Source: Girardia tigrina
Lineage: Eukaryota
NCBI GenBank assembly: GCA_001938485.1
Contig: MQRK01228891.1
Span: 94,178-158,177 of the forward strand
Reading direction: 5' to 3'
Length of the DNA stretch: 64,000 nt
The position numbers and the translations under genes were made by a program. Shown here piece by piece: positions 8,062-60,919 of this stretch. The notes under the pieces were generated by a model that saw nothing but the letters and a program-made list of their open reading frames with translations, did not search any database and had not been told where the DNA came from. Position 1 is the stretch's first letter, and each line of letters starts with the position of its first letter.

Positions 8062-8669
8062 TATATATAAAATTCTGATAATTAAAATCTTCAGAACTAA
8101 ACCGGAATGTGTTTTTAAAATGGAAAATTGTGAAATAATCTAAATTCAGCCGTGATAAATTCTGTAAATTAATGGCAATTTAATTGGAATTTTAGAGTAA
8201 AAATAACATTTATTATGTACATGGAACACATCTTTGAAAAACAAAAGAATCCTAATTTTATTTTTAAAAAATTTTTAAGTAAAAATACAACATTTTTGAA
8301 GTATCTTTCATAGTAAGTGTTTAGGATTCCACAATTCTTTCGTGTTGGTTATATTTATTAAATAACCACTTCATAGAAACATTAGCCACACCATTTTAAA
8401 ATATATTTTGGGATTATATATTCAGACAGTTTTACCTTCATCTTCAGATCACTGATTTTGAGCCTTTTTACAGCTTGTATCTGTGAAATAAACGATTACA
8501 TTACGTTAAGGCAATCTGTTAAGTAAAGTTAATTTAAAACTCTTAACAAATTGTTTGTAAGGGATTAAGAAATTATACATTCACTAATTCCTCATATACA
8601 TTATAATAATTTCTTTATATTTATTTATATATATATATATTACTTAACTTTCTTTCATGATATACTTAA

Positions 8670-8875
8670 CATAACACAGAGTTTGCAGTTTGTCTTCCAA
8701 TTTCAAAACCACAAATCATAGTTTAAATAATCTTAGCGGGCTCTTGATGGAAAACATGTACACAAACAAACAGATAGCTCACAACATTAAAGTTACATTG
8801 GATAAATTATGTACACAAACACGGGTTAATAAAGAAATAAATGAAGGAAACATTGAAGAGTACAAACAAATAATC
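8670..8875 (+). mobile_element. Penelope-like element RT-thumb fragment
   Basis: HRVCSLSSNFKTTNHSLNNLSGLLMENMYTNKQIAHNIKVTLDKL resembles the PLE RxxxICS...L..NGY thumb; truncated by a mariner at 8878. Confidence 0.6.
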
Positions 8876-8877
8876 TA

Positions 8878-9490
8878 CAAGGTGCGATCCATAAGTCCTT
8901 AGACTCGACAAGAAAGCAAAGCCCAATCAACTTTCTTTTTTCAGAATCAGTACATGACATCAAAGTGAATCATTTCTCAATGCACGAGCCGTGTACATCA
9001 ACACACTTGTGCCAGTGAGCAACAAGCTCAGAGAACGCATTTTTGTAAAAATTTGGAGGCGAAGAATTGAGAATATCAAGGACTTTCTCCTTGAGGACAT
9101 CAACTGAATGAAATTGGACAACTTTCAAATGTTTCTTAGGTGTTTAAATAACGCAAAATCATTTGAGGCTAGGTCAGGGCTATAGGAAGGATGGGAAACC
9201 AATTGAAAGTCACAGTCATCCACAGCAGTCAAAGTTGCTCACGAAGTGTGAATGGGTGTATTGTCTTAAAGTAGTCACAATGGGATCCCTCTTGGCTTCC
9301 TATGAAACTTTCTCACATCGCGAAATAATTCAACATTATACTCACTATTCATTGTCAGTCCTTTCTCAAGGAAATCAATTTTATTAATGCCATGGGAATC
9401 CCAGAACACTGTCAGCATTACTGCTCGCTTGTATGAGGTGCCGCTTCGAACATTTCTTAGTTCTTCATTTGAGCTCAAGGGTCACTTCTC
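8878..9490 (-). mobile_element. mariner transposon relic
   Basis: VMLTVFWDSHGINKIDFLEKGLTMNSEY and PSYSPDLASNDF (YSPDL motif) on the minus strand; TA-flanked terminus CAAGGTGCGATCCATAAGT at 8878. Confidence 0.85.
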
Positions 9491-10739
9491 AATGCTGTCT
9501 TTAAGATATCCTTTTAAACGGAAATCTCCCAGATGTTATCAAGTCTCAACCAATATGCCTTTTTAATATCTTTTAGAGGTTTTCAAATTAATTTTGATTG
9601 CGATTATCATCCTTAAACTCAGAAACATAATTTAAAATTATTATTCTTTTTGTAACAAATTTCTAGAAACATAAATTTTTCTTTGACTGCACCTAGTTTA
9701 CTAACAAATGTAATTATATTTGTACATTCATATTGGAAAATGATTCCAAATTTAAAGAACAATAAACCTTTCTTGCAGGAATTACTTGTTTATTTAATGG
9801 ATTTTAGGTAGACCCACTTAAATTGGCAAGGGAAAGACATTTTATTTTGGAAACCAACAATAATGTTCTCAAAACATTAAAATTGATTTGTATAAGGGAT
9901 TAGTTTAAATTTAAGTTTCGCCAAAATAATTTATTATTTTTTTGATTTGAAAATTTAAAAGAAATAAATTAAAAAAATTAAATGTAGAGTAAAAATATGA
10001 TAAATAAATACTTATTTAAAATATGTTTACAGTAATAACAATTGATATATTTTGATAAAAGTTATGAAATAAGTTAAATAAATTTTAAATAAATTTTAAA
10101 TAAATAATTAACGGATCAATATTTAAGAAATAATTTTTTAACAAAAGGGTCTATTGTAAATTTAAATTAATTAGTTTTTATGATAAAGTTTCGTAGAAAA
10201 ATGTAAAATAATTTAAGGTTTAGGTTTTGTAAAATTTTCGTAAAAAATGTAAAAATAATTTGAAGTTTATATTTCGTAACTTTTCAAAATTTAATCGAAA
10301 AAATTTATGAATTAATTTTGGGCGAAATAATTAAATTAATAAGAAATTTGTTTAAGTATGTGAATTGTTGATATTAATAAATTTTGTGGTGTGAAATTAT
10401 GACTTCAGAATGTGATAATAATGAAAGTGGCATAAACGCTACTTACAATTTGAACAAAAGACTTTTAAAGAAAAACTATTTATTGAAATCCTAAATAATT
10501 AATTGATTAAATCATTAAATATTCATAATATTAATAATTGCACCTTATTCTGAAGAATTTAAAAACTTTAAAAAATGCATTGTTAAAAGCAACTAACAAT
10601 GAATTAAATTTTAAAATTATATAACGATCTCAAAAGCTTCAAAATATGTTCAGTAATAAATCTATTACATCTTTATCACTATTGTTAAGAGAACTCACAT
10701 ATTTGACAGAACATTTATTACATTCACATTTCTTATCAT

Positions 10740-11070
10740 CTTTATGGTGATCAATAGTAATGCTTTCACTTAGATACATCAATCAATTTTCAATATCTCT
10801 CATTATAATCTGAACTATACTTGATAAGATTAATTGTTAATTAGGTTACGTTATCCTAAAATCGATGTTCAATCGGCAGTCTCAACCAGCTTATTGAGAA
10901 TTTTTGATTAGCATGATTTCATGCAATCGATTACATAATCATCATTTTTGTATTTATATCCAGGTGAATTGATTATTAATTAGTGACCTGAAGATGACGG
11001 TTGATCCGTCGGACTATAATGTATTGAAATATATTTTTAAATGGATGAGTTTTGTTTGTAACAAAAAATT
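10740..11070 (+). mobile_element. Penelope-like 3' end (pLTR) with hammerhead-like motif
   Basis: YPKIDVQSAVSTSLLRIFD* C-terminus followed by gac-CTGAAGATGACGGTTGATCCGTC-ggac at 10985-11014; inverted homologue at 18740-18955. Confidence 0.65.
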
Positions 11071-13492: not shown

Positions 13493-13573
13493 AGTCTGGT
13501 GCCAGCAGCCGCGGTAATTTCAGCTCCAAAAGTGAATATTAAAGTTGTTGCTGTTAAAAAGCTCGTCATTGAA
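13493..13573 (+). pseudogene. 18S rRNA fragment (universal GTGCCAGCAGCCGCGGTAA region)
   Basis: AGTCTGGTGCCAGCAGCCGCGGTAATTtCAGCTCCAAaAGtgaATATTAAAGTTGTTGCtGTTAAAAAGCTCGT matches the eukaryotic SSU consensus with several substitutions; no flanking rDNA. Confidence 0.9.
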
Positions 13574-15317: not shown

Positions 15318-18300
15318 TTGTGTTTTAGAATGAAATGAAATGAAGGCTGATCAAAACATAACTGGATCAAGTGTAACTGGAAGTAGAGATGGAATATGTG
15401 GTAACTCGACTACAGAGACGTTTTAAAAACACGTAAAACACTTGATTTCTTCAAAAGACTATTTAGCAAGCAAATTGCAGATCCAAACTAAAACATCTGT
15501 TACAAAAACATTATATATATAATTTTACTGCTTTTTTAAAGAAAGAAGCAACAAGATGTCTGAGTGATCTGTTTAACATGCTTTGGAAGTATAACATATT
15601 ATTATACAAAAAAACGAATTTTGTCCCTATTACCTCCATGAAGAAGTATACAAATAATACGAAAGAAATATGTTGATATTCTTAGAAAAATGAAATCTAA
15701 TTCCTACTATTAATTGTACAATTTACATGTAATATACGATACATCATGTAACAAGTTAAGCATATGCTTAACATAAAGGGTGTTAAAAATAAGAGAGAGA
15801 AATCAAAGACATTTTTTTATTAAGACAATTTTACAGACCATTTTCTTTATACATGAAGTTGTTATTGATCCAAGAAAGATTCAAAATTCGGATGGAGCAA
15901 AACTCATTTTGTATATTTCTTGAAGTTCTCAGAATTTAGTTTTTTAAAAGAAAAGTTTGTACATTTAGAAGTTGCGAATTGGCTTTATAGAATAACCAGA
16001 TCCGAACTGGGGTCTCGCAAGGATCCTGATTTAGCTTTTTCTACATCAAAGGGACAGAAATGTGTATTTCAAAGTAAAATTCGTCATGCCCCTGTAGTAT
16101 ATGATTTAATGGATCTTGAGAGTCTAAAACTGCATATTTATATAAAAAAGGATGTTTTTGTTCATTAGATAAAAATTTTTGTCGACTGAACACATGTGTC
16201 CTTATTATCATGTTTTCCTTGCTGACGTTTGAAAGGACTATTAGCCATATGTTACGGAAACTTATCAATTTTATTTATAGTTTGATCATGCTGACATTCT
16301 CCAAGGATACTCCGACTTTTAAGTTTATTTATATTTGAAAATATAAAAGAAATAATAAAGATATGTAATAAATGAAAGAGTTTTCTTCTTAATGTATTCT
16401 AAAGGACGATTGGAGAGATAAAATTATGCGATCAAAGGTTTACATGTTTTGCGAAGATCAGAGAAAGTGGTCTCAGGGACATGTGGGATCTATACCAACG
16501 AAATGTTCTTTTATTTTATCATAAAATTCATAATTATTCAATAATTAAATTAATATATTATTAGACAGTTTTAAAGAGTCATATATTAGCATTAGTTCTA
16601 CAAAGCATCCCCCACAAATATCAATGGCAAGAATGAAATATATTAATAATATTTGTAATCAAATGTTTCTTGCAATCATGTATGATGATATCTAATTATA
16701 AATACGTATAATATTACATAAAAAATAATGATTATAAATAAAATATTAAATTAAAATTTTAATATATTTACAGACTTCGCAACATTTTTCCGTCACAGCA
16801 GTCGTACCAAAATACGCCTCCGTCTGAGCAGGTTTATTTATTTATTTTTATATTATTTGTTTTCATTGAAAAGTTTCAATTAAATATATTTTATAAATAA
16901 GTAATAAAATTTTTGTTACAATTAAACATTAATTATTAAAATACGTTTTTGGTTACATTTTCGAAGAAAATTATTAAAAATTATTAAAATAATAATATTT
17001 AATAAACATAATTAATATATAATTAGAGATTGAACGACAAGTTAATATGAAATAGTAACGATCCTTTATTTTTTTATTTGGATGATGTAGAAATAATTCA
17101 ATAATTTCAATAATTTTAATAATTATAATTTTAAAATATTTATAATTTTTTTTCGTTTCATTTAATAAAAATTAAAAAAATCATTTAATTTGAATCTAAA
17201 ATTTATTCGAATCTAAAAAGAACATCCTCCCGGTTGTGGGATCAAATAGAAAAGAATTTAAATTAAGAAAAATGTAAAATTTAATTATAATTTTATTATT
17301 TTTAGTATTTGGAACGTATTTTAAATTATAATTTATAACGAATAAATTTTTGCACTTTTAAAGAGTTTTTCATGGAATTTATAAATTGAGTTTTTATTTA
17401 TAATTTTTTTTGTAAAATATAATATATAATATATGATTGCTTTTTCCTCGACTGGCTTTAGCTATTTCTGGTACCGACTTTTTGCTATGTTAATACGTTA
17501 GACCAAGGAAGTATTTAAAGTCAAAACTCCAATGTCATTTGAAACCATTGGTAAAGTGTTAACATCAAATTAGTGTTAGACCTGGACTGAACTTAATAAA
17601 TATTGTATTTGTTGGTATCCATAATGCTTCATTTTATTAATGCTTTTTAATCATATAATTATTATTTAGTAATATTTTTCTCAATAAATTGAAAAAAACA
17701 AGATAACAATATTGAGACAATTCTCATTTGAATCTTTATTGCAATTACATTTAGAGTCATTACAACTCTCAGAATGTCTGTCATCGTTTGCCATCGCTCT
17801 AATTGGTTTCGTATTTTTTATTTTTAATCATGATTGTTCGAACAATTTTTCTAAATCTTTTAAAAATACATAATTTTTGAAATATTAATTAAAAATAATA
17901 ATTTAAATCATTTCTAAATAAAAACACAAAATTTTAAAAAATGTTATCAAATTATTAAAATGACTTTAATTTAAGTTTTATTAAATTTATTTAAATTTAA
18001 TTAAATGTTTTTCTTTTCTTAAAAAATATTAAACTTAATTTAAATTGCTAATTTAAAAAATAAAAACTTATTATTTTAAATATATTAGAATAGTCAGAAT
18101 AGAACATTTTAAACATTTTTGTATGGGAAAAGATTTTTTTTACGAACGGATCATAAAGCTATCACTTTTATGATGACTACGAAAAACCCTATTACACCAG
18201 TTTCAAACATGGATAAATTTTGAAATTGAAAATAATTAGTATGAACTCAGAAATATATTGATCAAGAAAAATGTCAAATAGTGAATGCGCTTGTGATATT

Positions 18301-18739
18301 AATAAATGTTGTAAATCTCATATTGATGCTGTTAATAATAGTAAAATTCAATTCATAAGTCATACTGATCAATTATATTTCCTCTAAATCATACATTCTT
18401 AATAGAATGCGCGTTAATGTTTCTTTTTACACGTTACGATTTCTTTATATCTTAGTTTTTTGAATTTTCAAATACGGAGTATTTTTCGACGAATTTTTTT
18501 CGTTCATTCTAATGTGTATCACAAAAGTAAACCATTCAATATCTTTTTGCTTCTACATATGGGTAGTTTGTAAAAACTAGTGAATCATTTGATGTGGCTC
18601 AGCAATACACATCAATTTTAACTATATCAGCATGTCTAAAATTCGTCCGGAAGGCCTAAACTAGTCAATTGACTGATTTTTAGTGATCGCTGGCCCACAA
18701 AAAATATTTACTAAATCAAATAAGTAACAGTTAATTGAT

Positions 18740-18955
18740 TAAAAACAAAATGCATCCATTAAAAAAATATATTTCAAGACAACATATTTCGACGAATCAA
18801 CAGCTATCTTCAGGTCACTGATTAATTAAGAAATAAAAAAAATTTAAATAAATTCATCTGTAAAGAAATACAAAATAATAATTATGTAATCGATTGCATG
18901 AAATCATGCTAATCAAAAATTTTCAATAAGCTGGTTGATACTGCCGATTGAACAT
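18740..18955 (-). mobile_element. Penelope-like 3' end with hammerhead-like motif
   Basis: Inverted homologue of 10860-11070; reverse complement reads gac-CTGAAGAT-agctgttgattcgtc-GAAA-TATG-TT-gtc. Confidence 0.65.
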
Positions 18956-19549
18956 TTAGTATTAGTCCGCAACAACTTATTAATTTCCATAATTGGCACG
19001 TAAACTTTGGATACCTTTGATTTCTATTTTATGCATTCCACCGATCAGATTACTACTTATACATTAAATATGTAATTCACCTTGAGCATACTCTACAAAA
19101 AATATCATTTCTCGTTTTACATTGATTCAAGCAGTTGTCGGTAGCTTCAATCTATCATTTTCGACCTAGAAGATCAAAATCCTCTGTTTTCTTTGAATAT
19201 GGTTTGATTAATGATTGACTTCTTTTTTTAAACACGAGAAGAATGGCTTTTCCTCCTCAAAATAAAACCATTTTTGATCACAAAACATTTAATTGAATAA
19301 TATGCGAATTGTTCCTCGAGGGTTCTTCCCCTATAAGTAGTTGTTATTTAACAAATGATGGAAATTAATAAAATATAATTCGAAATTTTAACCCTTTAAA
19401 TTTGAGCATATTCACTTTTTTCCATCTTTGATTTGAGGTCATTTGTATTGCAATAAAAAAATTGTGAAAAAAATAGAATTTTATAATTTTTTGTTTGTAT
19501 TTCACATTATTATTTTATTTTTACTTAAAATGTTTTTTATATGTTTCAG

Positions 19550-37414: not shown

Positions 37415-37455
<41 letters not shown>

Positions 37456-40400: not shown

Positions 40401-40467
40401 TCATTTTAAATTTTTACTCTACAATTAAAATTTGATTATTTTCGAAAATAACTTTTAAAATTAATTA

Positions 40468-40514
<47 letters not shown>

Positions 40515-49500: not shown

Positions 49501-52500
49501 ACCGTATATTCGAATGCAGTTATGGCTCAGGCAACCTGACAAACTTAATATATTATTAAATAGTCAAAACAATCATAAATATAAACAAAGTAAGTTTAAA
49601 ATCTTCAAGGGCTTTTGTAATTTACTTGGAAAGTTAATTAAATAAAACATTAAGGCGTCTAAATTTTTTGTTTGTATATTTGTATATTTGGGGTCATTTG
49701 TTTATATTAGGTCGTCAAGTATGAAATTCGTAGAACTACAGCCAAATTAATTAATAATTTACCAATACAAATATTTATGTCATTCATAAAAGTATGCAAC
49801 CATATTATTGACACCCTTTTGCTATTTGAGTAGCCGATCGTTGAGGATATTTGAATGAAAAGTTGGTGGACGAGAATCTATAATTTCTTCGGAGTAGAAT
49901 TTTTTTACTATCAAAAGGTTGTTCGAATTGAGGAAAAATGGTAATCAGAAGGGGTTAGGTCTGATGAGTATGTAGGATGACAGAAGCTTCAACTCAATTT
50001 CCTGTAGTTTTGTCTCGGTCTTAAGTGCAGTATATTGTTTTGAAGTCGACATGTTTACCAAACGCGGCTGTTTTTCTTTGAGTTTCTGCATCATATCTTT
50101 CAATAAGTTGCAGTAGACATCTGCTGTGATCAACGAAGTCAAAATACGGTTTCATGAAGTCAAAATCAATTGCTCCTGCTGTAGACCACCAAAAATTCAC
50201 CATCAGCTTCTTTTGATGAATTTTTTGCTTTGGACTGTGTTTTGTGGTTTGATGTATGTCCATTTAGCTTGCTGAACGTTTACAATTATAATATTGGATC
50301 TACTTTTTATCACAAGGGACGATTCGATTAGGACAGTGATCACATTTATAACGAGAAATCATCCTCAGGCAAGCATCCAAACTCTTTTGTTTCTGCTTTT
50401 CATTCAACTCGTGTGAAATTCGCCTATCCAACGTTTTCACTTTACCAATTAAAGACAAGTGATTCAATATTATTTACTTTATAACAGTAAATGTAGGTGA
50501 AAAATCATGAGCAATTTGTGATCGATTCGAATACACGGTTACCTTCAGTTCGTCATTATCTACCTGCGTTACTGGGAAACTCCGAGACTCATTTGTTGAG
50601 GTTAAAATTACCTCTTACAAATTTCTGGAACCAATATGAGACTGTCTGCTGTGTAAAATCTGCTGTGGAACACACTATTGATATTTAGCATGGTTTCTGA
50701 TGCTGTTCCAAGTAAAAACATTTACTTCATAATAGTTCGAATTTCTGCCTTTTCCATTTTTTAAAATAATGATTATCAAAAAATGTTATCAATAGTTTTA
50801 GTTAATTCTTATTAGTGTGTTCAAGAGCCAAGATGTGTAACAATCAAATAAAAATAAACGAAAAGCAAAATGTTACGTCTTTGTCAAATTATAACTACTT
50901 GAATTTATTGTAATCATACCTACAAATTTCATTCTTGACAACCTAATATATTTGCAACTATAAAAAGACTTACGCTTAATTTCTTTTGAAAATTTTGTTA
51001 CATGATAATTTTCTGACTTTTCCACGTTTTGGTCGAAAAGCAAATTATCATGGTACTATTATTTATTAAATTATTTTGTAAACTTGTCCACTACTAACAA
51101 ACATCATCAAGAGTTTGTGTTCACGTAAAAAATTCTTGGACTCCTTGAATAATATTTTTGAACGTTTTTGCGGGAAATCTTACATTATTTTCAAAATTTT
51201 ATGAATCTGCTGTTTAATCGTACTCAAACCAGGTTAATGTAAAATATGCATGATATTCAGATATGTACATTGTACTTTGTACATCGCGCAATCAATTGTA
51301 GATTATTCAAGTTTTAACTAAAAATCCTTACTTAAATATCTAGTGCTATGCAACTTGTATATCCTTTCCTCCATTTTTGGTACTAGGAATGCTTCTTTTC
51401 TGTTCATCTGTATGAAATCTATACACAATCAAATCGATACTTAGTCATTTTTTAATATGCATACCAGTGGTTTATTCAATGGTGAACTACAAGGTCGAAT
51501 ATTACCACTATCATATAAGTTCTTCATAGCTTCCTCCAAAATAGGTTCTAAATGCAATGGTTGTCTTCTTGGCTTGATATTTATAGGTGCACCTTTCGTA
51601 TTTATTGCGTGTTTTAGAAAATGAGTCCAACAGATTTCAGATTCGTTTGCCATAAATATATTCCTGTATCACTGACAATTTCTTTTAATATAAGTCATTT
51701 TGTAGTTTGACACATTCCATTGCTCGTTTTGCCCCACATTTTGCTTCTCGCTCATAAAAGTGATATAATATCTCTATTGGGTTAGTTTCTATACTTTGTA
51801 ATTATATTCCAAATCTTTTCTGAAATGCGACTCCTATCATTTCTGATTGTAAGTCTTCTACTACTACGAATTTGACCTTTCCTATCCTCTATTCTATCTG
51901 GAACAAAAGCCAAGGAATGGACAACAACAGCGCGGAACTAATTCAGAATGGAGGCGAAAATGCAGTGACCATTCTCCATGCAATATGCAACAAAATTTTA
52001 AAAAGTGGAGTTTGGCCGTCACAATGGACTGAATCTATCCTCATACCAATACCGAAGAAAGCAAATAGTAAAAAGTGCAGCGACTTTAGAACGATTAGTT
52101 TGATCAGTCACGCATCAAAGTTTACGTTGAAAGTGTTACAAAGAAGAATCACACCGAAAGTGGAGCAAGTTCTTAGCGAGATGCAGGCAGGCTTCAGAAG
52201 AGACCGCAACACTACGGAGCAGATAACCAACTTAAGACTAATTTGTGAGAAAACAAGAGACCACAAACGGATAATTTGTCATAACTTTATAGATTTCAAA
52301 AAAGCTTTTGACAGGGTGTGGCACGAAGCACAATGAATAAACAGAACATAGGAAAACATATCACGAATATTATTAAGAACCTTTACGAAGATGCAAAGAC
52401 AAAAGTGTTGACAAGTGAGCAATTTAGCGACTGGTTTAAATCATCAGTAGGAGTAAGACAAGGTTGCATTCTTTCACCAACACTGTTCAACCTTTTTCTT

Positions 52501-55500
52501 GAGAGAATTGTTATGGAAGCAATAGAAGATCTAGACGATGTTGGAATAAGCTGCGGAGGAACAAGAATAACCAACCTACAATTTGCTGATGATATAGACC
52601 TAATCGGCAAAGATGAGGTAGAGATTCAGGAACTCACGAACAGATTACACAAAGCGTCAAACAATTTCGGAATGGAAATCAGCAGATAAAAAAGCAAAGT
52701 AATGGTTTCAGGAAACCATAACAACGAGGTTAAACTGGAGATTTTCATTGAATGGGAGGAGCTGGAACAAGTAAGGAGTTTCAAATATTCAGGCTCTACT
52801 ATCACAGAGAATGGGGGAAGCGAAGAAGAAATCAGAAGCCGGATTGGTATATCAACAAGCGCAATGATTAAGCTTAGCACAGTTTTTAACTTCAAAGAAA
52901 TCCATCTCAAGAGCAGATTGAAGATCACTAAGGCTGTTGTCTGGGCAACACTCCTCTATGGATGCGAGAGTGGGACAATAAATCATAAGAGTATAGATAT
53001 GCTTAAAGCGTTTGAAATAAAGTGCTACAGGAGAATACTGAAGATCACGTGGAAAGAAAAGAAGACAAATGACTTTGTTTGGAGGAGAGTGACAGAAATA
53101 CTGGGTAAAAGACCGGAATCAATAGAAGAGATCATCAAGAGAGGGAAGCTGAAATTCTACGGTCATCAAATAAGAAAGCAAGCATTAGCAAAGGTTATGA
53201 TTGAGGGAAGAGTAGAAGGAGAAAGACCAAGAGGAAGACCAAAGAGGCAATGGATGAACGATTTAAAAGAATGGACTGGACTGAGTATGGAATGTCTCAG
53301 AAAAGAAACTACAAATAGAAAGATGTGGCGAAGGCTTGTTTATAATTGGGTGCACCCACGGCCCAACGACTAAGGTCAAAAGAAGAAGAAGAAGATTCTA
53401 TCTGGAAAATCGTATCGATCTCTCCTACTAATCCAATTTATGTCCCGTTTGCGGCTGTTTATTTCTGGTATATTTTTTCAACTCTGCATCCTGAAACTTC
53501 CTTGCTAATTTTGCAAAAATAATATTTAATGCTGCTCATGAGTCCAATATATACATTCAATCGTTTTCCTTTCAATCGTTACTGTTATGTTTAAAAGCGA
53601 TTATTGTCCAAGTAGCTTATCATATAATATCTCTGTCGTTCCTCATTCACTAGTTATCATAATTTTCAGTATACTATCGTCACTATCTTCCATACTTGAT
53701 TTCCTTTCAGACGCAAAAACTTTTTTATTGTATTCTGTTCGTACTATTTGGGCGTCTCCCTTATGACAGTGCTCGTCTTCTTATCCTTATTTTCTTTATC
53801 ATAACTGTCATTGCGTTCCTCATCTTTCATCTCATCATTATCATAATTATAAGTATAATTTTGTAGTTTGACACATTCCATTGCTCGTTTTGCCCCAAAT
53901 TTTGCTTGTCGCTCATAAAAGTGATATGATATCTCTATTCTGAACTGAGTGGTTCTCCCAAGTTTTCTCATGGAATCTGTCCTTATATTTTCCGTCATTC
54001 GAGTGAGATTTTTTTAAAGGCTATCCTTTTAAAACATATCCTTTTGTTTTTGAGTAAGGCGGTGTCCTTGGCGCAAACATCTGGTGCATGTTAAGTTTGG
54101 AAGGTTTCTTCTTATATGCCATTCTTTGTGGCATCCAGAACTTAACTTTCTTCTTCAATTTTGAAACTGATAATTCATATGCCACTTTGTTATACTATTG
54201 TCGATTCTGTCATTATTTCTGACAGGTGATCCTTTGATTAAGTTAAAACAATAGCAATACCATTTTAAATATACTTCGACGGTTTTACCGTTATCTCCAC
54301 ATCAATGATTATTCGTTTTTTTTATCGCTTGTATATGTAAAACCAATGACTATGTTAATCTAATACGTAAAATTATTCGAAAACTCTTTATTAATTTATA
54401 CAAATACCAACTCTTCATATATCAGTCTTAAAAAGCTTATATTCAGTGATCTGAAGATGATGGTTAAACCTTCGAAATATATTATCATAAAATATATTTT
54501 AAAATGGCGTTCGTATCGTTTTATCAAAAATTGCTATTATTTTTAAAATTTATTTTATATATTAATTTAACATTTTATTTATTCATTTGATTTAAAAACA
54601 TTAATGATACATATTTTTGTAAATAATTTCATTTTGTTATTTTTACGAATTGTAGAAAAGTTACAATTTTTACAATATTTTCGTTTCAAAAAAAAAGAAT
54701 ACAACTGAATATTAGATCATTATAAAATTTATTTATCAAAATTTTCTCAATAACTTGTAAGGGATTCTAAGGATTTAAAAAATATTTCCAAAATAACTAA
54801 ATTCTGAGGACATCCACAATTATGTTTTTAAAAAATTATTCATTTTTTTAGAATTATAAATTCAGAAAATTTTATGAATTTTGATTTTAGTATTTTCTGA
54901 AATTAGTTTCAGTCTCTTCATTCCAGAAGTCTGTATAATCTATCAAACTACATTTTATTCTATAAAACATAAAACATTTGCATCTGCCACATTCCGCAAT
55001 CGACCAAAGAGTCAGTTCATGCTGTTTGAATAAACGTCAAGTCTTTGGCAGCAAAACTCTGAACAATATTCTTTTTGACATCATATCATTTGCAAAGCGT
55101 TGATTGGCCAGGACATTTCATAACGACGGAAAAAGATGATAATACAGGTGCTGTACAGCTGATGTTGCAGAAACTCCCTGTCAACTTGTCTTGTTTGCAA
55201 TATGCGATCGTACGTTTTCGTTGAGCAATAACAACCTTTTTCTGTTTCTCAATTCTGCTCAATTGCCAGGAACGCTTGATGAACAATGGCAATTTGATCA
55301 CCATGCACATCAAATATATTCCCGTGTATTCTACCAGATTGTCACCATAATTTTTATCTAATGAATATCTTTATTCACATGTGTTCCTCAAGTGCTCATT
55401 CATATTTTCATTATCACTGGTTACTCGAATAAGTAAATAATTGTAAGTGGTAAAATGAATCATTTTGTTGTTGTCACTCAATTTGTGTCATAGCAGTTTG

Positions 55501-58500
55501 TCAAGCTTTATTCTGACGGCAGATTTATAATTTTTTTAATTTGTTACCTTTGGATTTTCATTTATTTATGGATACTGTAAGCGTAATTCGTCTTTAAATT
55601 TGGTAAAATATAATCAGTAATGAATTAACGCTTTAATTTGCACCTTTGTGTCATTGACACAAGCAGAACAAAAGCTTTCTAAACTTTATGAAGTTTACAG
55701 AAAATTAATATAATTCTACATTTTAATGACGGAACAGGAACAAAGTTAATTACTTTTTTGGTACCTAATATTAATATGTGATTATATTCTGATTAGATTT
55801 AAATTGAACGTAAAATGACTTGGAAGAAAGATGTCTCTATTAATGTTTACATCGACATGTCCTACCTTTGCTCTGACTCCACATGCAAGTAAATAATAAA
55901 TACTTCAAACTACCCATGACTTTAAACACCTTTTATTCGTAATTAAAATAAAATACAAAACATAAAACAAAGACAAAAAAATCAGTGGACTTTCTTTTCA
56001 CCATTTTTGTGGATTTTTAGATAATCGTTTGCCGGCGCTAATCGATCGTTGAAGTCCATTTCTGTGTCGATACAATTGACCGACTTTTTATTGTTGTTGT
56101 TATTATAACTACTACTACTATTGCTCATGTTGCAATTATAATCGCTCAATATTATTTTGATAAATAATATATGCCATGACAGAATAATGTTTAATTTTGG
56201 ATTTTAAATTTTACCAATTTCCACATAAACAAGTTGTGTTTATTTCTGACACAATTACGATTTGATAAATAGATAATTTCGATAAACAAAAAATCGATTT
56301 TTAATTTACAATAACCGAATTTATTTTTGTTGGGAAAATTGATTTTATGGAATTTCTATGGAAAATTGATTTTTTTTCGTAATTTTTTGTTTGCGAAATA
56401 AAAGATATTGAATCATAGTTGTTAATAATTTTTTTACTGAAAATAATGTTTTTTAAAATAATTTATGGTTTCGTTAATTTTAATTGCAACAAAAAATTTG
56501 TTATTGAATAATAATAAATGAAAATAACATTTTAATTATTTAAACCTCAGACATTTAAATATCTATCTTTCAAAGCAACGTGCTTCACCATATGTGTCAT
56601 TGCGAGCGGGAGAAGTAGATATGTAGGCCACAGAATAACTATTGTGTCGTCCCTTACATTTTGGATATTTTATACATTAAATTTGATCTTGTTCTTTGAT
56701 CCATTGCAGAGATTATGTGACGTCTCTCTAATGTAGGCCTCCTGACCCAGTGGCGGCACACGATTGCTCGTGCGGCACTTACCCAGGATAATAGCTCGTA
56801 CCGCTTGTCAGCAGCTGAGACGGTGTATCACTGTGTAGACAAACTCGCCTACCCTCATCTGATCATGGGCCCCGCCATTACACGTTTCCGTAATACCGCT
56901 CAGAAAATAGCATGCCTTTTACGGAGGTGGATTGCGAGCCCTTGTCCTCCATACTATGTTGATCAGCACCCCAAAAAGGAAAGCTTCGGACACTTTAGCC
57001 TTGAGAAGAGGACTCTAGTTTCCCAGAGACACCGCGTGGAGATATTTCCACTTGGCTTAGCACAGGTTACCAATATAACAGGTTCACTGCTCTCCAGTGT
57101 ATGTGGTGTTACACCCACAACTTTTATATTTAAAAATGAGATCGTGGTAAATACTGAAAGGTTGCAGGATTTTATATCTAAACATATTATTCATTTTATA
57201 AGATAGTATCGATTGTGAATAATTGGACGAAATTAATTACAATAAATTTCAATAAATCGCGTTCGAAATCTTTTAATATTAATAATTTACAGTTGTATTT
57301 TCAAAAAATAATTTTTCGATTTATATTATTATTATAAGATTTAGGAGTTTAATTTTTTGATTAAAGTGAAAGTTATACAAATAATTGTTAGAAAAATCTA
57401 AATTAAATTAATTATTATTATTGTGTAATAATAAATTGTTTGCATTTCTTAATTTCAAATTAAATTTTTATTTATTTATTATTTATAAACGAAGTATGTG
57501 GTCTCCGTGGGCGACTATTTCACAACTTCTTTTGCAAATAATTACATTAAATTAAGTAAATTATTCTATGGGATTTTATATCTAAAGGAATATCAAGAGT
57601 GGTCGCAAAAATCGCGTTCTTATTATCATTCGTTTTAGCTTTCCAACCGTTCTTATATACAACCTTATGCTAGAAACCTTAAATATACATTTTATTATCA
57701 AACTCTTATTTTTTTCCTATTTACAAACATCTTTGTAGATTTCCTCAATCAAAACGAAAGTTCCCTCAAAAAGTCTCCAATTAGTCCCAAAATTGAAAAT
57801 GAAACTGAATATGATTTAATGATGAATAACAATTGCGATGCGCATATCAGTTCGAAAACGTCTCCTAGAATTAATAAATTCATTTATAAAAAAGGAAGAA
57901 TCGTTTTTACCGAGTCTCAGAAAGCTGAGTTATTATCAATATACGAAATTTGTCCCTATCCGAGGACGGAACATTTGGAGGAGATCTCTAGGAAATTGAA
58001 CATACCTTTGAAAACGGTAATCGAAATCAGTTTTTAGTAGAAATAGTTCTTAAATTATTTATATTAAGATTAACAATTGGTTCCATAACTATAGAATGAG
58101 GAATAAAAATACCGCGAGATGTTTGACATTGAATTGTGCCAATGAGCACGAGAACTTCACCGAAACATCTGGCAATCAAATTGAATCTTTATCAATAGAA
58201 TCTGATATAAATTCAGAAAAGTCTCTACAAATGAATAAGGAAGAATCGTGCGTAAATGAACCATATTCGTGTGATGGGAGCGAAAGTGAAGGCTCGATGC
58301 CAGCTCCGCACCTTTATCCAGAGTCATCGCAACTAGAAGCTGTTACTATCGAGCATAATGTGACGGAAAACAATTTCGTTGAAGACGAAATCGGATACAG
58401 CATAAATAATTCACAAAATCTTTCAGTTCAAAGTATTGCCGGAAGCAATAAACGGAAACGAGCTAACCCTATCAAACTCGAAATGGTCGTTTCGAAGATG

Positions 58501-58611
58501 ACAAACAAGGACTCGGATCCTCACTATTCTCAATCGGGAGACTCTGACACACATGAACACAGCTCTACACTCAATTCTTCTTTTTCTAACAAAATTCCCA
58601 AACTCGAGTAG
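19550..58611 (+). CDS. cux: Cut/CUX-family homeobox transcription factor (coiled-coil + 3 CUT repeats + homeodomain); spliced model join(19550..20129,32153..32884,44121..44269,44319..44819,46491..46719,48813..49589,57739..58016,58069..58611), possibly 5'-incomplete
   Basis: All seven introns are GT..AG and phase-compatible (1,1,0,0,1,1,0). Joined length is 3789 nt, 1262 aa plus stop. Three CUT repeats ([48 protein letters not shown]) and a homeodomain ending NWFHNYR (His50, diagnostic of Cut/Cux). Confidence 0.93.
22627..23055 (-). mobile_element. TG...TA solo-LTR-like element, degenerate copy
   Basis: Homologous to 37018-37415 in the opposite orientation; motif TTCCTTCTGGGTGGAAGGAACACAAT; ends CCTTCACA. 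Confidence 0.55.
24280..24484. repeat. Dispersed non-coding repeat (other copies inverted at about 31855-32060 and 60220-60330)
   Basis: Shared TCATTTATTG(T/C)CATCGAGAATGAGTAAGTG...CCTTCAAAAA-TAGGTTTCTAAATTC; two copies abut (TA)n tracts. Confidence 0.75.
24541..24989 (-). mobile_element. TG...TA solo-LTR-like element
   Basis: Ends TATTAACAAC and TCCCTCACA; perfect 5-bp TSD AGTTT (24536-40 and 24990-94). Confidence 0.75.
25409..28880 (-). mobile_element. Degenerate LINE (APE endonuclease plus RT, RTE-like), frameshifted
   Basis: KVCTWNLRG, ILTETH, IVGGDFNCRI and GSDH (APE); KAPGSNG, FIDLEKPFD, LGPSLFN and LAYVDD (RT); C2H2-like remnants near the C-terminus. Confidence 0.9.
30800..31235 (+). 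mobile_element. TG...TA solo-LTR-like element
   Basis: TGTGAGGAATATTT...GGTGTTCTTAATA with perfect TSD ATGGT (30795-99 and 31236-40). Confidence 0.8.
32153..32884 (+). CDS. cux: cux exon containing CUT repeat 1
   Basis: [63 protein letters not shown]; acceptor tttag at 32148-52, donor gtattc at 32885. Confidence 0.95.
34680..35198 (-). mobile_element. TG...TA solo-LTR-like element; close relative at 17710-18100
   Basis: TTCCATCTGGGTGGGAGAATCAC motif and TCCTCACA end; 34685-35070 is collinear with 17711-18095. Confidence 0.6.
35815..35846 (+). ncRNA. Minimal hammerhead ribozyme core (Penelope type)
   Basis: CTGAGGA-T-GTTCT-gtta-AGAAC-GAAA-CATG-TC: intact core, 5-bp stem II, palindromic ACATGT stem III, GUC triplet; stem I is poorly paired. 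Confidence 0.6.
36540..37010 (+). mobile_element. Highly degenerate Penelope-like linker/endonuclease relic
   Basis: FVPVIERTHLLTKRL...KMLKDK resembles the PLE linker; an inverted degenerate hammerhead lies just upstream (36465-36503). Confidence 0.35.
37018..37415 (+). mobile_element. TG...TA solo-LTR-like element, 3' end lost in a microsatellite
   Basis: TGTGAGGAATATTTT start; GTGTTTCTACCACCCAGATGGAA motif. Confidence 0.65.
37610..37998 (-). mobile_element. Internally deleted Tc1/mariner-superfamily transposase relic
   Basis: N-terminal HTH (FKERFKREPPPRTTVQHWKKKFEETGNL) joined directly to a typical C-terminus (LDELQGAISRVLSDI...NFVKRCNLCLQKNGEYFEQL). Confidence 0.75.
38039..40140 (+). 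mobile_element. hAT (Buster/SPIN/GTF2IRD2-like) transposase pseudogene
   Basis: ENRLFNPD...MCLRC...QHY, ISLSRR, FSVALDESCDATDTAQLL, CIIHHQALCAK, YHTNVRCLS; frameshifts; interrupted at 38263-38814. Confidence 0.9.
38263..38814 (+). mobile_element. TG...TA solo-LTR-like element inserted in the hAT ORF (contains an N gap)
   Basis: TGTGAGGAATATTT...GGTGTTCTTAATA with TSD GCAAG (38258-62 and 38815-19); 3' part nearly identical to 351-479. Confidence 0.85.
41745..42072 (-). mobile_element. Short MULE-derived element
   Basis: HPTMWKFMEGLWKAQ...KRRKYVEADERI resembles a MULE transposase C-terminus; imperfect terminal IRs GG..ACATTTTG(A/G)CG(T/C)GAAAAAA. Confidence 0.6.
42250..42620 (-). mobile_element. 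Penelope-like GIY-YIG relic, same family as 4790-5337
   Basis: Reverse complement gives QHNLVYNFN, KVLDHWVICKNK and YESL; shares AAGGTTCTTGATCATTGG with 5136-5153. Confidence 0.6.
44121..44269 (+). CDS. cux: cux exon (post-CUT1 helix, absent from ORF track)
   Basis: Acceptor tattag, donor gtaaat. Reads GFSGHYAGMSPATPIKEDHETQEKIKRILNDAKMAMAS..., resembling the IxxILxxA(K/R) helix that follows CUT1 in Cux proteins. Phases 1 and 0 fit both neighbours. Confidence 0.85.
44319..44819 (+). CDS. cux: cux exon (low-complexity linker)
   Basis: Follows a 49-nt GT-AG intron (44270..44318); in frame with ORF 44391..44861; donor gtatgt at 44820. Confidence 0.85.
46491..46719 (+). CDS. cux: cux exon: N-terminal half of CUT repeat 2
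   Basis: Acceptor ttgcag; INTNALVNMIKEHLTKNSISQRTFGCLL; donor gtgata at 46720, phase 1. Confidence 0.9.
47000..47620 (-). mobile_element. Chapaev3-like (CMC) transposase relic
   Basis: WLSFRSVVDEFLG...YKTMG..SL..NFQHSHIDFLPRNLADVSDGQDERFHQ matches this family's HSHLDFFP.NLG.VSDEQGERFHQ signature; upstream LHIKLGL and FPKLSDSKI. Confidence 0.75.
47925..48620 (-). mobile_element. Penelope-like GIY-YIG 3' relic with degenerate hammerhead downstream
   Basis: Reverse complement gives NLVYQFKCHKCESLYIGETNWYLRSRIAEH and DALLIKHLKPCLNFQ; gtgacgatgaaggttgatcaatcGAAAtacattg at 47925-47963. Confidence 0.85.
48813..49589 (+). CDS. cux: cux exon: C-terminal half of CUT2 and complete CUT3
   Basis: [31 protein letters not shown] and [64 protein letters not shown]; donor gtaagt at 49590. 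Confidence 0.95.
49707..50946 (-). mobile_element. Full-length but decayed mariner (cecropia-like)
   Basis: TA-flanked TIRs TTAGGTCGTCAAGTATGAAATTCGTAG versus TTAGGTTGTCAAGAATGAAATTTGTAG; 1240 bp; KIHQKKLMVNFWWSTAG. Confidence 0.9.
51290..54230 (-). mobile_element. Ty3/Gypsy gag-pol relic, split by a LINE
   Basis: Zinc-knuckle-like CHKEWHIRRN..CTRCLRQGH near 54060-54140; RT N-terminus HAINTKGAPINIKPRRQP...IRPCSSPLNKPLV at 51441-51653. Confidence 0.75.
51904..53394 (+). mobile_element. 5'-truncated RTE-clade LINE with (GAA)n tail and 13-bp TSD
   Basis: FRTISLISHASK, FIDFKKAFD, GVRQGCILSP, QFADD, EGERPRGRPKRQW; TSD ATTCTATCTGGAA at 51891-903 and 53395-407; one frameshift and one stop. Confidence 0.95.
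54446..54488 (+). ncRNA. Minimal hammerhead ribozyme motif
   Basis: gtgat-CTGAAGA-T-GATGGT-taa-ACCTTC-GAAA-TATA-TT-atcat: 5-bp stem I (one G-U), one stem II mismatch. Confidence 0.6.
54980..55770 (-). mobile_element. Degenerate mariner relic
   Basis: TA-TTAGGTACC terminus near 55760-55770; decayed transposase C-terminal similarity in 55000-55330. Confidence 0.5.
57739..58016 (+). CDS. cux: cux exon: homeodomain helices 1-2
   Basis: KKGRIVFTESQKAELLSIYEICPYPRTEHLEEISRKLNIPLKT; acceptor ttgtag, donor gtaatc at 58017. Confidence 0.92.
58069..58611 (+). CDS. cux: cux last coding exon: homeodomain helix 3 and acidic C-terminus
   Basis: After a 52-nt intron (AAG acceptor) the frame reads INNWFHNYRMRNK, which restores canonical homeodomain spacing; TAG at 58609-11. 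Confidence 0.92.
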   Translation: MNNWFHNYRMRNKNTARCLTLNCANEHENFTETSGNQIESLSIESDINSEKSLQMNKEESCVNEPYSCDGSESEGSMPAPHLYPESSQLEAVTIEHNVTENNFVEDEIGYSINNSQNLSVQSIAGSNKRKRANPIKLEMVVSKMTNKDSDPHYSQSGDSDTHEHSSTLNSSFSNKIPKLE

Positions 58612-60785
58612 ACTCTCAATGAAACGATACAAATCTCTTTTTTCACTAACCTCTATTATTATAAAAATTGTTATTATTTATCTTTGAATACGTCATTTTT
58701 ATTGCTTTCAAATTTGAACACTTGTTACAAAATTTTGCGTCGTTTTGAAATTTTTCTGTGGCCTTAATTTGATTCTCATACGGGACCAATACTCTCACTC
58801 TATCACTGTGTATACTGGCATCATCCAGACTCCTCGGATTATCGAACATTCCAGTCTGTATATTATTGAAATAATTGTAATATAAACTTTTATTATGGAT
58901 GTTAAATATAAATTTTGTCCAGTAAAAGAGTTACAATGTGTTGTGGTTGTGAGTATTGATTCATAATGCGTATACACCCGAGTATAACACGAGATATTTA
59001 TGACCAGTACTAAGATGAAAATTGGACAATTGAGTTTTATCTGAGACATTTAATGCAAGTTACTCACGTACTGCAGTTACTTTCAGTTAATAACAAAGTG
59101 TCAAGAGTTTATAACAAATTCCTTATTTAAATTAAATATCGAAACTGAATGACCAATTAAAATTGAGCAAAAAAATTAAAAACATACATTGATAATAAGT
59201 CATTTCAGTCTACAGTTGTTTGCAGTTAGTAGTAGTAGATCATTGAATAATTTTGAATTACATATTAAAATTGTTAATTTAAAAATAAATAACCGGTATT
59301 TTTTACATTTTTTTAACATTTTACATTGATATTAACTAAAAAATGATTTCTACGCTAATACACACAAAACATACTACCACAACTCAATACACACATGATG
59401 CACACTCCATTTCCTTGCATTTAATAGTGAAATTTTTTGTATGAATATTTTTCAGTTTTCACCCACAAACCGTATTTACAACATTAATATTAAGGTATTT
59501 TATTATTAAAAATAATTTTTATTGATTGATTTTAGCTCAGAATCAAAAAACATCAATTTCGAACAATCACATGTAGAGAAGAAAACTATAAAATCGTAAT
59601 TTTTATTAATCTTTAAATATGATTTAAACTTAACTTAAGAGCATTTAAAGTTGGCAAGTTAAGGTTCATTAGAGCATAAAACAATGCATTTTAATTCTCT
59701 CAAAGACGTAAGTATTGCTATCAGTTAGTAACGAAAAGGAAGAACAAAATTATTAAATAACAATCTAATCTAATACAGAAAAAAAACTTTTTTACTCTGA
59801 TAGAAATTATTATGCCAGTATTTGTCATTAACACAGTGATGATTTAAACACTCACATTACTTGGTCTGAAACTGGTGGATTGAGAGCTGAGAGTCATGTT
59901 TTTTTACAATGGAATGTTATTATTGAAATCTTTAGTGATAAAATAGTGGAAAATACGGTAACTGTAATAATTTATGTCGAAATATCTAATGAAAGGATAA
60001 CAATAATTAAGTTAAAATAAAATTATTAAGTCTTATTTATATTCAGTTAAAATATATATTTCGAATTACAGTACTATATATATTTAATACTGAGTCCCTA
60101 TGCTTGCAAGTATTCTTTCGTTTGGGTTAACATTGATCATCTAGTATCAAAAGTGTCATTTCTAATTTAAAAACATTACAAAAATCAGGATAAAAAAGTA
60201 TTGGATCTCATGATTATTAGAATTTAGAAACCAATTTTTGAAGGCTTGTACTCAATCAATTTTCTGCACACTTTGCTCACTTACTCATTTTTGATGGCAA
60301 TAAATGATAATGTGAAAATTTGATCAAAGTAGGAAATCAAAAAAATATTTTTTTGCCAAAAACGTTTTACGATTATCAATAAATGTTTAAACGGCATTAA
60401 ATAAAATGTTTGGTTTTTTTTCCTTCCATGCTTTATAATAAATTTATTATGTTATTAATGACTATTTAATTTCAAAATGGAGTTGTCAAAATTTTTTGTA
60501 TGAACTTTTCCCATCGACAAAAGATAACATATAAAATTCTGTTGGTCAAGTAGAGTTCTGCCCGCATAAAGAATGGATATATAACAACTGTGACTTATGA
60601 CTGACTAGTTAGTTGGACAAATTCAACTGATTATGAATCTGACCAACACACTATATGTAATATATTTCTTACATCAGATTTGACATATTTTAAAAATAAT
60701 GTACAAATTTCTAATAAATAAACTTGAAAAAAGATGGCCATTTTTTATTATAAACAAATAAACGCCATTTAAAAATATATTTTAG

Positions 60786-60824
60786 GATAATATATTTCGA
60801 CGGTTTAACCGTCATCATCAGATC
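60786..60824 (-). ncRNA. Minimal hammerhead ribozyme (best-preserved copy)
   Basis: Reverse complement gat-CTGATGA-T-GACGGT-taa-ACCGTC-GAAA-TATA-TT-atc: intact core, 6-bp stem II, ATATAT palindrome, 3-bp stem I. Confidence 0.7.
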
Positions 60825-60880
60825 ACTGATTATGTTCTTTTTTTGTTCTTTTAAAAGCAATAAAAAAGAACATAATCAGT

Positions 60881-60919
60881 GATCTGATGATGACGGTTAA
60901 ACCTTCGAAATATATTATC
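60881..60919 (+). ncRNA. Minimal hammerhead ribozyme (mirror copy)
   Basis: gat-CTGATGA-T-GACGGT-taa-ACCTTC-GAAA-TATA-TT-atc; one stem II mismatch. Confidence 0.65.

Follow-up and report, generated by a model that had tools for sequence, protein, structure and literature searches.

Minimal type I hammerhead ribozymes are known from the pLTRs of metazoan Penelope-like elements (PLEs). According to the accessible text of the report that described them (Cervera and De la Pena, 2014, PMC4209133), they combine a short helix I, a palindrome at 15.2-16.2, an extra nucleotide that separates position 9 from 10.1, and a G10.1-C11.1 pair, and they occur as thousands of mostly solo copies of several families, with opposite-strand pairs 100–700 bp apart and tandem pairs that enclose an RT ORF at a spacing of about 3 kb. 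The hammerheads that we describe here, from a 64,000-nt stretch of the Girardia tigrina genome ("the window") and from related loci elsewhere in that genome, share all of these features and are further examples of the kind described since 2014. Their small palindromic helix III is like the Drosophila/rotifer/shrimp variant, while their stem II is shorter (3–6 bp) than in the Schistosoma consensus (7–8 bp) (PMC4209133).

In Adineta vaga Pen2a and its relatives (Arkhipova et al., 2013, PMC3846280), the pLTR (about 200 bp) includes the first codons of the ORF and a putative TATA box, as here, together with an Inr-like sequence at a spacing of 20 bp. An optional tail (31 bp in Pen2a), inverted head-to-head pLTRs, and a palindromic junction also recur here. 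The target-site duplication is longer here (13 bp versus 8–10 bp), and the accessible part of the Pen2a paper mentions neither a hammerhead nor an upstream TTRCRTAA site, unlike the elements here. The promoter pLTR of Drosophila virilis Penelope (PMC2377424) contains a hammerhead whose helix III is a small palindrome, like the pLTRs here, but its promoter is internal and TATA-less, whereas here a TATA box is conserved in position. For the Poseidon element PAc of Anolis carolinensis (Frangieh et al., 2024, PMC11167929), activity has been shown, whereas that of the youngest family here (family A) is putative. The likely start codon within the hammerhead core and the upstream TATA box, which we discuss below, both have published precedents in the available texts on Anolis PAc and Adineta Pen2a. 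Finally, animal non-LTR retrozymes have type I hammerheads related to those of PLE pLTRs, as here, but they are described as short tandem units with one hammerhead each (bioRxiv 10.64898/2026.07.22.740005), whereas our motifs are solo or inverted ends of truncated coding elements.

Hammerhead copies in the window

The minimal type I hammerhead motif is genuine at nine of the ten sites that a first-pass annotation of the window had listed, and a further copy at 48176(−) brings the total to ten. These copies and the parts that neighbor them are as follows.

8401..8459, minus strand: decayed A-like hammerhead, with changes at G12 and A13 (C3 at 8447; profile and covariance model)
8660..8887, plus strand: PLE RT-thumb fragment beside the 8447 copy (PLE protein match)
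10553..10908, plus strand: relics of the linker and of the C-terminal endonuclease, upstream of the 10988 copy (PLE protein match)
10976..11034, plus strand: family C hammerhead with a dead core, A13, A15.1, and U16.1 being changed (C3 at 10988; profile and covariance model)
16775..58611, plus strand: host Cux (cut-like homeobox) gene (exon matches)
18767..18825, minus strand: family C hammerhead, core intact, with G10.1-C11.1 and one further stem II pair broken (C3 at 18813; profile and covariance model)
18912..18989, minus strand: C-terminal endonuclease codons upstream of the 18813 copy (PLE protein match)
35803..35860, plus strand: family B (ACAUGU/GUC type) hammerhead, a solo pLTR stub with an intact core and intact stems II and III, and with a C-U mismatch as the closing pair of helix I (C3 at 35815; profile and covariance model)
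47913..47972, minus strand: strongly decayed A/C-type hammerhead, the copy at about 47959; it has lost C3, its stem II is broken, and it lacks an endonuclease of its own; the weakest real site (profile E = 6e-4, covariance model E = 0.11)
48134..48188, minus strand: family H hammerhead that follows its own endonuclease relic at about 70 nt, with a changed A13 and damage to stem II (C3 at 48176; family profile and covariance model)
48248..48617, minus strand: GIY-YIG endonuclease relic of family H, with a frameshift and a stop (PF01541, E = 2e-4, just under the curated cut-off)
54255..54312, minus strand: decayed A-like hammerhead, diverging from 54451; changes at C3, A6, G10.1, and A15.1 (C3 position 54300; profile and covariance model)
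54439..54497, plus strand: family A-like hammerhead with its tail; core intact, U-U mismatch at the third stem II pair (C3 at 54451; family profile and covariance model)
60705..60968: one head-to-head, extremely 5'-truncated PLE insertion (repeat, fold, and target-site duplication analysis)
60775..60833, minus strand: family A minimal hammerhead, the sole fully intact copy; helix I of 3 bp, stem II of 5 bp, palindrome AUAUAU, cut triplet AUU (C3 at 60821; covariance model, 69.5 bits)
60872..60930, plus strand: family A hammerhead, inverted partner of 60821, on an arm without a tail; C-U mismatch at the third stem II pair (C3 at 60884; covariance model)

The cores (CUGANGA-U-stem II-GAAA-palindrome-UH) that had been called intact are indeed present at 35815(+), 54451(+), 60821(−), 60884(+), and 18813(−) (given as 18812), and the core boxes CUGANGA, GAAA, and UH are complete in five of the ten copies. 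The word "intact" applies to the core only, as the whole fold is intact at 60821(−) alone and the other nine copies are damaged. The decayed copies at 8447(−), 10988(+), 54300(−) (given as 54290), and about 47959(−) (given as 47950) also stand: family DNA profiles, which were built on loci outside the window, match them with E = 1e-20, 9e-42, 5e-12, and 6e-4, respectively, and the best match on the reversed window has E = 0.3. With the covariance model, eight of the ten sites have E < 0.004, the 47950 site has E = 0.11, and the next match has E = 0.86. The remaining candidate, 36490(−), is unsupported as a hammerhead: its sequence is unique in a genome search, and neither the profiles nor the covariance model detected it. 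An Rfam scan of the window returned 22 matches at E up to 10, with the hammerhead family absent from them. Minimal hammerhead variants can score below the Rfam hammerhead models.

Some of the proposed neighbors had to be reassigned. Copies 10988 and 18813 do lie behind GIY-YIG C-termini, as had been claimed, but the relic that had been tied to the 47950 copy (48248–48617) belongs to 48176, as a family H endonuclease leads into the 48176 type of hammerhead at 14 of 14 other loci. Two copies had also been placed inverted upstream of PLE ORF fragments. The fragment beside 8447 is real, but because its identity to the family A and C proteins is low (40–44%) and it has DNA in common with the stretch upstream of another endonuclease relic (4935–5334), it is probably a neighbor from a different family. 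No PLE protein fragment was found near 36490.

Covariation of the helices

We aligned 17 copies from 10 families. The core boxes CUGANGA, GAAA, and UH are invariant in all 17, rows that were picked from descriptor matches, that is, by their core; helix I was absent from every search pattern. The extra nucleotide between A9 and 10.1 is U in 17/17 copies, and G10.1-C11.1 is G-C in 16/17. Overall, 89.6% of the cells are paired (versus 24–50% in slid controls), and 10 of the 12 pairs show changes on both sides. The share of paired cells and the score for covariation were each reached by none of 500 shuffles. (By itself, the number of pairs that changed on both sides was matched by 40 of the 500 shuffles and so is not above them.) Stem II is 96% paired. 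The palindrome of helix III (AUAUAU, ACAUGU, or AUUAAU) is also paired in 96% of cells, with two-sided changes in two of its three pairs. The three inner pairs of helix I hold in 13–17 of the 17 rows with three to five pair types, while the fourth fails in 11. All three helices covary across the 10 families.

Parent elements and insertion ends

The proposed link between the motifs and PLEs is confirmed, in that an ORF with RT and GIY-YIG domains precedes the motif in genomic copies. The motif lies behind the stop of this ORF in copies of family A, in at least 20 of 24 loci of family C, in 14/14 loci of family H, and in 6/20 loci of family B (GUC type), two of which are near-duplicates. One family A unit has a motif on either side, the two being 2,558 bp apart. 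In families A and H, the ORF pieces form a single ORF with RT followed by a C-terminal GIY-YIG endonuclease with a CCHH motif; the PF01541 matches are weak, and this architecture is pieced together from interrupted copies. The element protein has 253 homologs, most of those listed with PF00078. Neptune elements are described as having a CX2-5CxxC zinc finger in the segment that links RT to the endonuclease (PMC8557442, available text), and this finger is absent from the linkers of families A and H, as read by eye. The traits of EN+ PLEs are present as well: 5' truncation, partial tandems, an inverted copy, and an optional tail of 30–40 nt. By these domain features, and not by a tree, we classify the elements as probable Penelope/Poseidon-type EN+ PLEs.

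The sequence shared upstream of the motif reaches into the endonuclease and RT by graded lengths, between 0 and more than 1,000 nt, and such a ladder is the mark of 5' truncation. The 3' ends are bimodal: measured from C3, 17 of 68 ends lie at +70–84 and 37 at +105–119, a ratio that is biased by the search query, and six copies continue into the ORF. Both classes occur in one insertion at 60718–60955, of which 60821 and 60884 are the two arms: the 60821 arm has a tail of about 32 nt and the other has none. This insertion is bounded by a 13-bp target-site duplication (60705–60717 and 60956–60968), and it is predicted to fold back into one long hairpin (−142.7 kcal/mol, z = −27). The prediction is thus that this hairpin keeps the only intact copy, 60821(−), locked against its inverted partner. 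An inverted partner is present in 10 of 29 other family A loci.

Taken together, we are confident that the motifs in the window are pLTR ends of 5'-truncated Penelope/Poseidon-type insertions that are decaying neutrally and are likely inert here. They derive from four families (A, B, C, and H), so the earlier "at least two PLE lineages" was right that there is more than one but was an undercount.

Abundance and decay

A strict hammerhead pattern has 22,140 matches in the genome, versus none for the reversed control pattern. This exceeds the largest count in the available part of the 2014 survey (about 9,000, in Xenopus; PMC4209133), with the caveat that the patterns differ. The genome-wide density is about 1 per 64 kb, and the window has four strict matches from three insertions where 0.99 are expected. 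The local excess (Poisson P = 0.02 for four matches, 0.08 for three insertions) is not persuasive in a window that was chosen for this feature.

In two of the families, the cores do not outlast their surroundings. In family A, 19 of 473 core positions differ versus 89 of 2,482 flank positions (P = 0.69), and in family B, 38 of 286 differ versus 145 of 1,210 (P = 0.55). In family H, the core has fewer differences (1/165 versus 32/781, P = 0.02), among copies that were found with a hammerhead-containing query. The window copies are thus likely to be decaying at the rate of their flanks, as judged from their sequences, and all of them are likely inactive where they are situated. The earlier statement that PLEs "seeded catalytic-RNA motifs across this locus" was too strong, given a density near the genome average, neutral decay, and no usable dimer partner. 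As all but one of the copies are damaged and the whole set is likely inactive, the finding is real but ordinary, and the locus carries little weight for a kind known since 2014 that recurs roughly every 64 kb. As a resource, the genome-wide set is useful, with at least 10 families whose helices covary, one of which is young (93–100% identity among the best-scoring copies).

Alternative roles for the motifs

The host gene, Cux, has exons near 16775 (a weak match), 19529, 32152, 44120, 46500, 48809, and 57765, and it begins with exons some 11 kb ahead of the window. Cux introns hold eight of the ten copies, and the 60.8-kb pair is 2.2 kb behind the Cux stop. As no core nucleotide is lost at 35815 or 54451, both of which are sense-strand copies in Cux introns, one or both might have been recruited for cutting or regulating the Cux pre-mRNA. 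We consider this extremely improbable: 35815 lacks the closing pair of helix I, 54451 has a mismatch in stem II, their palindromes differ, they are 18.6 kb apart, and their mixed active dimer is predicted at +6.2 kcal/mol versus −14.5 for the best alternative. Also, the observed decay of 4–13% per base should leave intact cores by chance. Another idea is that the motifs form an independent non-autonomous element, such as a retrozyme or a SINE-like element, instead of truncated PLE ends. Many copies are indeed solo stubs of 130–250 nt without coding sequence (e.g., 35815 and the 60.8-kb pair). However, the ladder of upstream lengths into the endonuclease and RT largely refutes this idea, and short head-to-tail units with a hammerhead each, by which retrozymes are recognized, were found neither in the window repeat list nor at family A loci. 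It is very unlikely to be correct, and we retain truncated PLE ends as the origin of the motifs.

A different question is whether active elements cut themselves at all, or keep the motif mainly as coding, promoter, or protein-binding sequence, with negligible cleavage in vivo. (The question is about the parent elements and does not conflict with relic status for the window copies.) The family A motif overlaps the start of the ORF, and even in intact copies the active dimer fold is predicted to lie 5–12 kcal/mol above the best alternative dimer. In Anolis PAc, moreover, insertion in vitro was unaffected by core mutants, and none of the RNA-seq reads had its end at the cut site, according to the available text (PMC11167929). 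The same text reports cleavage of PAc with C3/G8 rescue, and across our 10 families the core is invariant and three helices covary while the reading frame differs among families. As coding constraint cannot explain a motif that covaries despite differing reading frames, we think that a mainly non-cleaving role is doubtful and continue to view the motif as a putative ribozyme.

A likely promoter, a likely start codon, and a possible switch

In family A, A9-U-G10.1 of the core is in frame with the RT-endonuclease ORF and is likely, from the sequence, to be its start codon. Of the 13 copies that extend into the ORF, 10 have an AUG frame that is open as far as the N-terminal domain. The FLxxC motif falls at residue 62 counted from the core AUG, versus a median of 58.5 in the 44 of 61 full-length relatives that have it, and residue 97 is the next Met. 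This arrangement is not a general one, because families H and B have a closed frame and their core AUG is unused, unlike in PAc (PMC11167929, available text). The extra U remains in these two families, so its conservation is not explained by the start codon. By a crude pattern, N-termini encoded by a hammerhead occur at the same rate among relatives (2/61) as among internal Met residues (23/708).

Upstream, TATAWAWR occurs at −30 to −38 in 7 of 10 families, versus 2% in the background, and it was not found in families B, C, and F. A working element would have the order seen in family A and its relatives: the stop of the ORF for RT and GIY-YIG, a bZIP-like site (near −56), a TATA box (near −34 in this youngest family), the hammerhead, a hairpin, and the tail. 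In a partial tandem, the pLTR is likely the promoter of the next unit, and by its spacing from the TATA box the start site would fall on the 5' strand of helix I. For family A we also considered a 60-nt intron (GTAAGT...CAG) with its end at helix I, as D. virilis Penelope has a 75-bp intron in its 5' UTR (PMC2377424, available text), but it is unsupported: the donor-like word lies in the TTACGTAA palindrome and is not common to other families, and no such joint is among 15 of the 17 joints listed for RNA-run contigs, which are mostly of guessed type.

We suggest, with little confidence, that in the TATA-bearing Poseidon-type families the mRNA may start at helix I, so that the hammerhead would be the whole 5' leader, with the start codon inside it or next to it, and cleavage would remove the cap and the AUG. 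As the palindromic helix III is too short to close on its own, two motifs would have to come together for cleavage, within a tandem transcript or from two RNAs; by analogy with published systems, this dimeric cleavage would probably be aided by the element's own protein. If the proposal is correct, then one cut would switch the RNA from message to reverse-transcription template, or would stop translation as RNA or protein builds up, and PLE hammerheads, whose role is still open, would have a concrete and testable job. The shared layout of promoter, ribozyme, and start codon makes that role testable. Our literature search, which covered sources outside subscription journals and supplements and included the available part of PMC13725137, found no proposal of such a cap-and-AUG switch for PLE hammerheads, which is weak evidence that it is new.

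Behind the ribozyme, reverse transcription likely has two start sites with a spacing of about 35 nt. These would yield both classes of 3' ends and would leave a hammerhead at the end of every stub, no matter its length. An 836-aa Anolis protein (P0091) is among the homologs, at 32% identity, which does not imply that it is PAc. The 3' ends of family A lie about 65–78 and 100–112 nt after the core AUG, as compared to initiation sites 111–118 nt into the ORF in PAc (PMC11167929, available text).

Hammerhead copies in the window

The first-pass annotation listed ten hammerhead copies, and a plain descriptor recovered the five to which it gave complete cores: 35815(+), 54451(+), 60884(+), 60821(-), and 18813(-). 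As an Rfam scan of the window gave no hammerhead match, we gathered genomic copies and built one DNA profile for each family of hammerhead ends, leaving out the window's own loci. These profiles found nine of the ten listed sites (E = 1e-41 to 6e-4) and an additional site, 48176(-) (E = 4e-12); the best match in the reversed window, our control, had E = 0.3. A covariance model from 17 copies, a search that the annotation had suggested, agreed with the profiles: nine sites had E < 0.004, the site listed as 47950 had E = 0.11, and the background began at 0.86. Site 36490(-) was detected by neither search and has no second genomic copy, so we reject it as a hammerhead; also, the PLE ORF fragment that it was said to lie near is not there (no PLE protein fragment is nearby). 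Thus, the list of ten had one site wrong (36490) and one missing (48176). Genome-wide, a strict pattern gave 22,140 matches and the reversed pattern gave none. This is a density of 0.99 per 64 kb, and the window has 4 matches from 3 insertions.

Hammerhead copies (position of C3, strand, family, condition)
8447(-), more distant member of family A, core changes
10988(+), family C, core changes
18813(-), family C, G10.1-C11.1 lost
35815(+), family B (GUC type), C-U at the pair closing helix I, where family B has C-G
47959(-) (listed as 47950), probably family C, core changes
48176(-), family H, core changes
54300(-), more distant member of family A, core changes
54451(+), more distant member of family A, third stem II pair mismatched
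60821(-), family A, the only copy retaining the core and all helices
60884(+), family A, third stem II pair mismatched

Link to Penelope-like elements

The proposed tie to PLE ORFs holds, as the motif lies behind the endonuclease in families A, B, C, and H. In family A, the best 40 of 322 candidates are 93-100% identical across ~130 nt. The DNA upstream of these motifs forms a truncation ladder, being common over 0 to >1,000 nt, and it codes for the RT end and GIY-YIG domain. A frameshifted ORF at one locus lies between motifs separated by 2,558 bp, and an inverted partner accompanies the motif at 10 of 29 other loci. At least 20 of 24 family C loci and all 14 family H loci have the motif after an endonuclease end. 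Because of the latter, the relic at 48248-48617 belongs to 48176, so the claim that three sites follow GIY-YIG ends stands for 10988 and 18813 and fails for 47959. Family B is older, with a longer untranslated end; at 6 of 20 loci, including two near-duplicates, a same-strand endonuclease precedes the motif.

In each defining feature that could be tested, the motifs agree with PLE minimal hammerheads; they do not qualify as retrozymes and are further members of a class already described. Neptune elements are described as marked by a linker zinc finger (PMC8557442). The RT-endonuclease linker of families A and H has no such finger, so the clade is likely Penelope/Poseidon. (Family H also often ends at (TA)n, yet the linker zinc finger was not seen there.) The commonest family among 100 listed pattern matches is GUC type F/G (L135, L137, L142, L144, L146, L147, L149, L154-L156, L158, L161, L163), which often ends at (TA)n without a TATA block. 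Families D, K, and M have a third palindrome type, AUUAAU, and D has A at position 17 (L028, L053, L013, L033, L111, L216).

Covariation and decay

The core is invariant in 17 copies of 10 families, in which 89.6% of cells are paired and 10 of 12 pairs are altered on both sides. Stems I and II covary, as the annotation had proposed to check: across 500 shuffles, none reached the observed fraction of paired cells or the covariation score, although 40 reached the number of pairs altered on both sides. Because the rows were picked from descriptor matches, this choice favors stem II and some of helix III. Helix I, part of no search pattern, has 3-5 pair types at each of its three inner pairs.

Core conservation above the flanks, which the annotation had looked for among genomic copies, was not seen within families A and B; these copies decay neutrally. 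Among copies found via the ORF or upstream DNA, differences in core vs. flank were 19/473 vs. 89/2482 for A and 38/286 vs. 145/1210 for B. For family H they were 1/165 vs. 32/781 (P = 0.02), with a query that itself contained the motif. As cores are unprotected within families, we infer that selection acted on the parent elements and not on the window copies.

A diverging family B pair ~200 nt apart lies inside a larger repeat with flanks common for >1 kb at 85-97% identity (L060, L062, L063, L067-L070, L073, L076, L078). We interpret this pair as a PLE stub that was multiplied as a passenger, carried by another element or by a segmental repeat.

Putative start codon and promoter, and 3' ends

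In family A, an AUG is made up of A9, the extra U, and G10.1. Of 13 copies extending into the ORF, 10 keep this frame open as far as the N-terminal domain (AUG is replaced by AUA in one of them) and three are frameshifted; a 14th copy is interrupted by an insert. In this frame, the conserved FLxxC motif is at residue 62, in line with the full-length relatives: 44 of 61 carry the motif, at a median residue of 58.5. The next Met is residue 97. So, the core AUG is likely the start codon of this ORF. The predicted cut is 27 nt from its A, and Frangieh et al. describe this layout in Anolis PAc, with 26 nt (PMC11167929). Not every family shares it: in H and B the frame is closed, and other candidate AUGs lie in loop II (H) and 13 nt upstream of the core (B).

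Between -30 and -38 relative to C3, TATAWAWR occurs in families A (54/65), D (3/5), E (3/3), and H (9/11), as well as I, K, and M, and is absent from C, B, and F. Families A, D, E, H, I, K, and M, together with C (20/23), also carry, between -53 and -58, a TTRCRTAA-like word that is a putative bZIP site (C/EBP or PAR). The background chances are 2% and 0.1%, respectively. The usual TATA spacing would place the start site 3-7 nt before C3. The pLTR probably acts as a promoter; a putative TATA and Inr and an ORF start within the pLTR have been described for Adineta Pen2a (PMC3846280).

Family A 3' ends cluster at +70-84 (17/68) and +105-119 (37/68), which corresponds to the optional tail already described; RT probably starts at two sites behind the ribozyme. 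The shorter ends lie within the loop region of a hairpin predicted when individual copies of A, C, E, and H were folded.

Cleavage

PLE minimal hammerheads are reported to require dimers and to have low activity (PMC4209133); for PAc, protein assistance is reported, and cleavage was not needed for insertion in vitro (PMC11167929). Even for intact copies, the active dimer fold is computed to be 5-12 kcal/mol less stable than the best alternative. Because the predicted energies are far worse for the window copies (-1.6 vs. -19.6 for the 35815 homodimer and +6.2 vs. -14.5 for the 35815 + 54451 mixed dimer), cleavage of the Cux pre-mRNA by these copies is unlikely. Sites 60821 and 60884 form the two arms of a single head-to-head insertion at 60718-60955, which is bounded by a 13-bp target-site duplication. 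Folding of its + strand predicts a single hairpin (-142.7 kcal/mol) that would bury the motif in read-through RNA.

A residual lead is that if element mRNA were cleaved, the cap and start codon would be removed together. We found no such proposal in the freely available article texts that we searched; its component parts are already published separately.

Locus and host gene

The window has a G+C content of 28.7%, in an animal assembly of 1.43 Gb, and contains most of a Cux homeobox gene (+ strand). A 1,353-aa Cux orthologue matches exons at 19529-58611 and, weakly, at 16775; the first exons precede the window by ~11 kb. The introns contain relics of many transposon kinds. No hammerhead was detectable behind the six further PLE relics in the window.

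Other features
4566-4721(-), 4729-5334(+), 33320-33915(-), 42359-43059(-), 43855-44016(+), 57074-57209(-), further PLE RT/endonuclease relics; 4935-5334 ends close to a (CA)n(TA)n run
46443-46772 and 48779-49645, apparent CUT-like matches of the Cux orthologue, four stretches (one of them weak) spread over three exons
44278-44319 and 58019-58069, gaps of ~40-60 nt in the Cux matches, probably mini-introns
6037-7737(+), first Cux intron, unbroken 566-aa Tc5/Tigger-like DDE transposase ORF (CENP-B_N, HTH_Tnp_Tc5, DDE_1), which may be a young copy
34779-34922 and 35281-35424, MITE-like inverted repeats (144 nt, 94% complementary, 358 nt between), nested in a repeat common to 17731-18096
26107-28919(-) and 51824-53373(+), decayed LINE-type RT/APE relics
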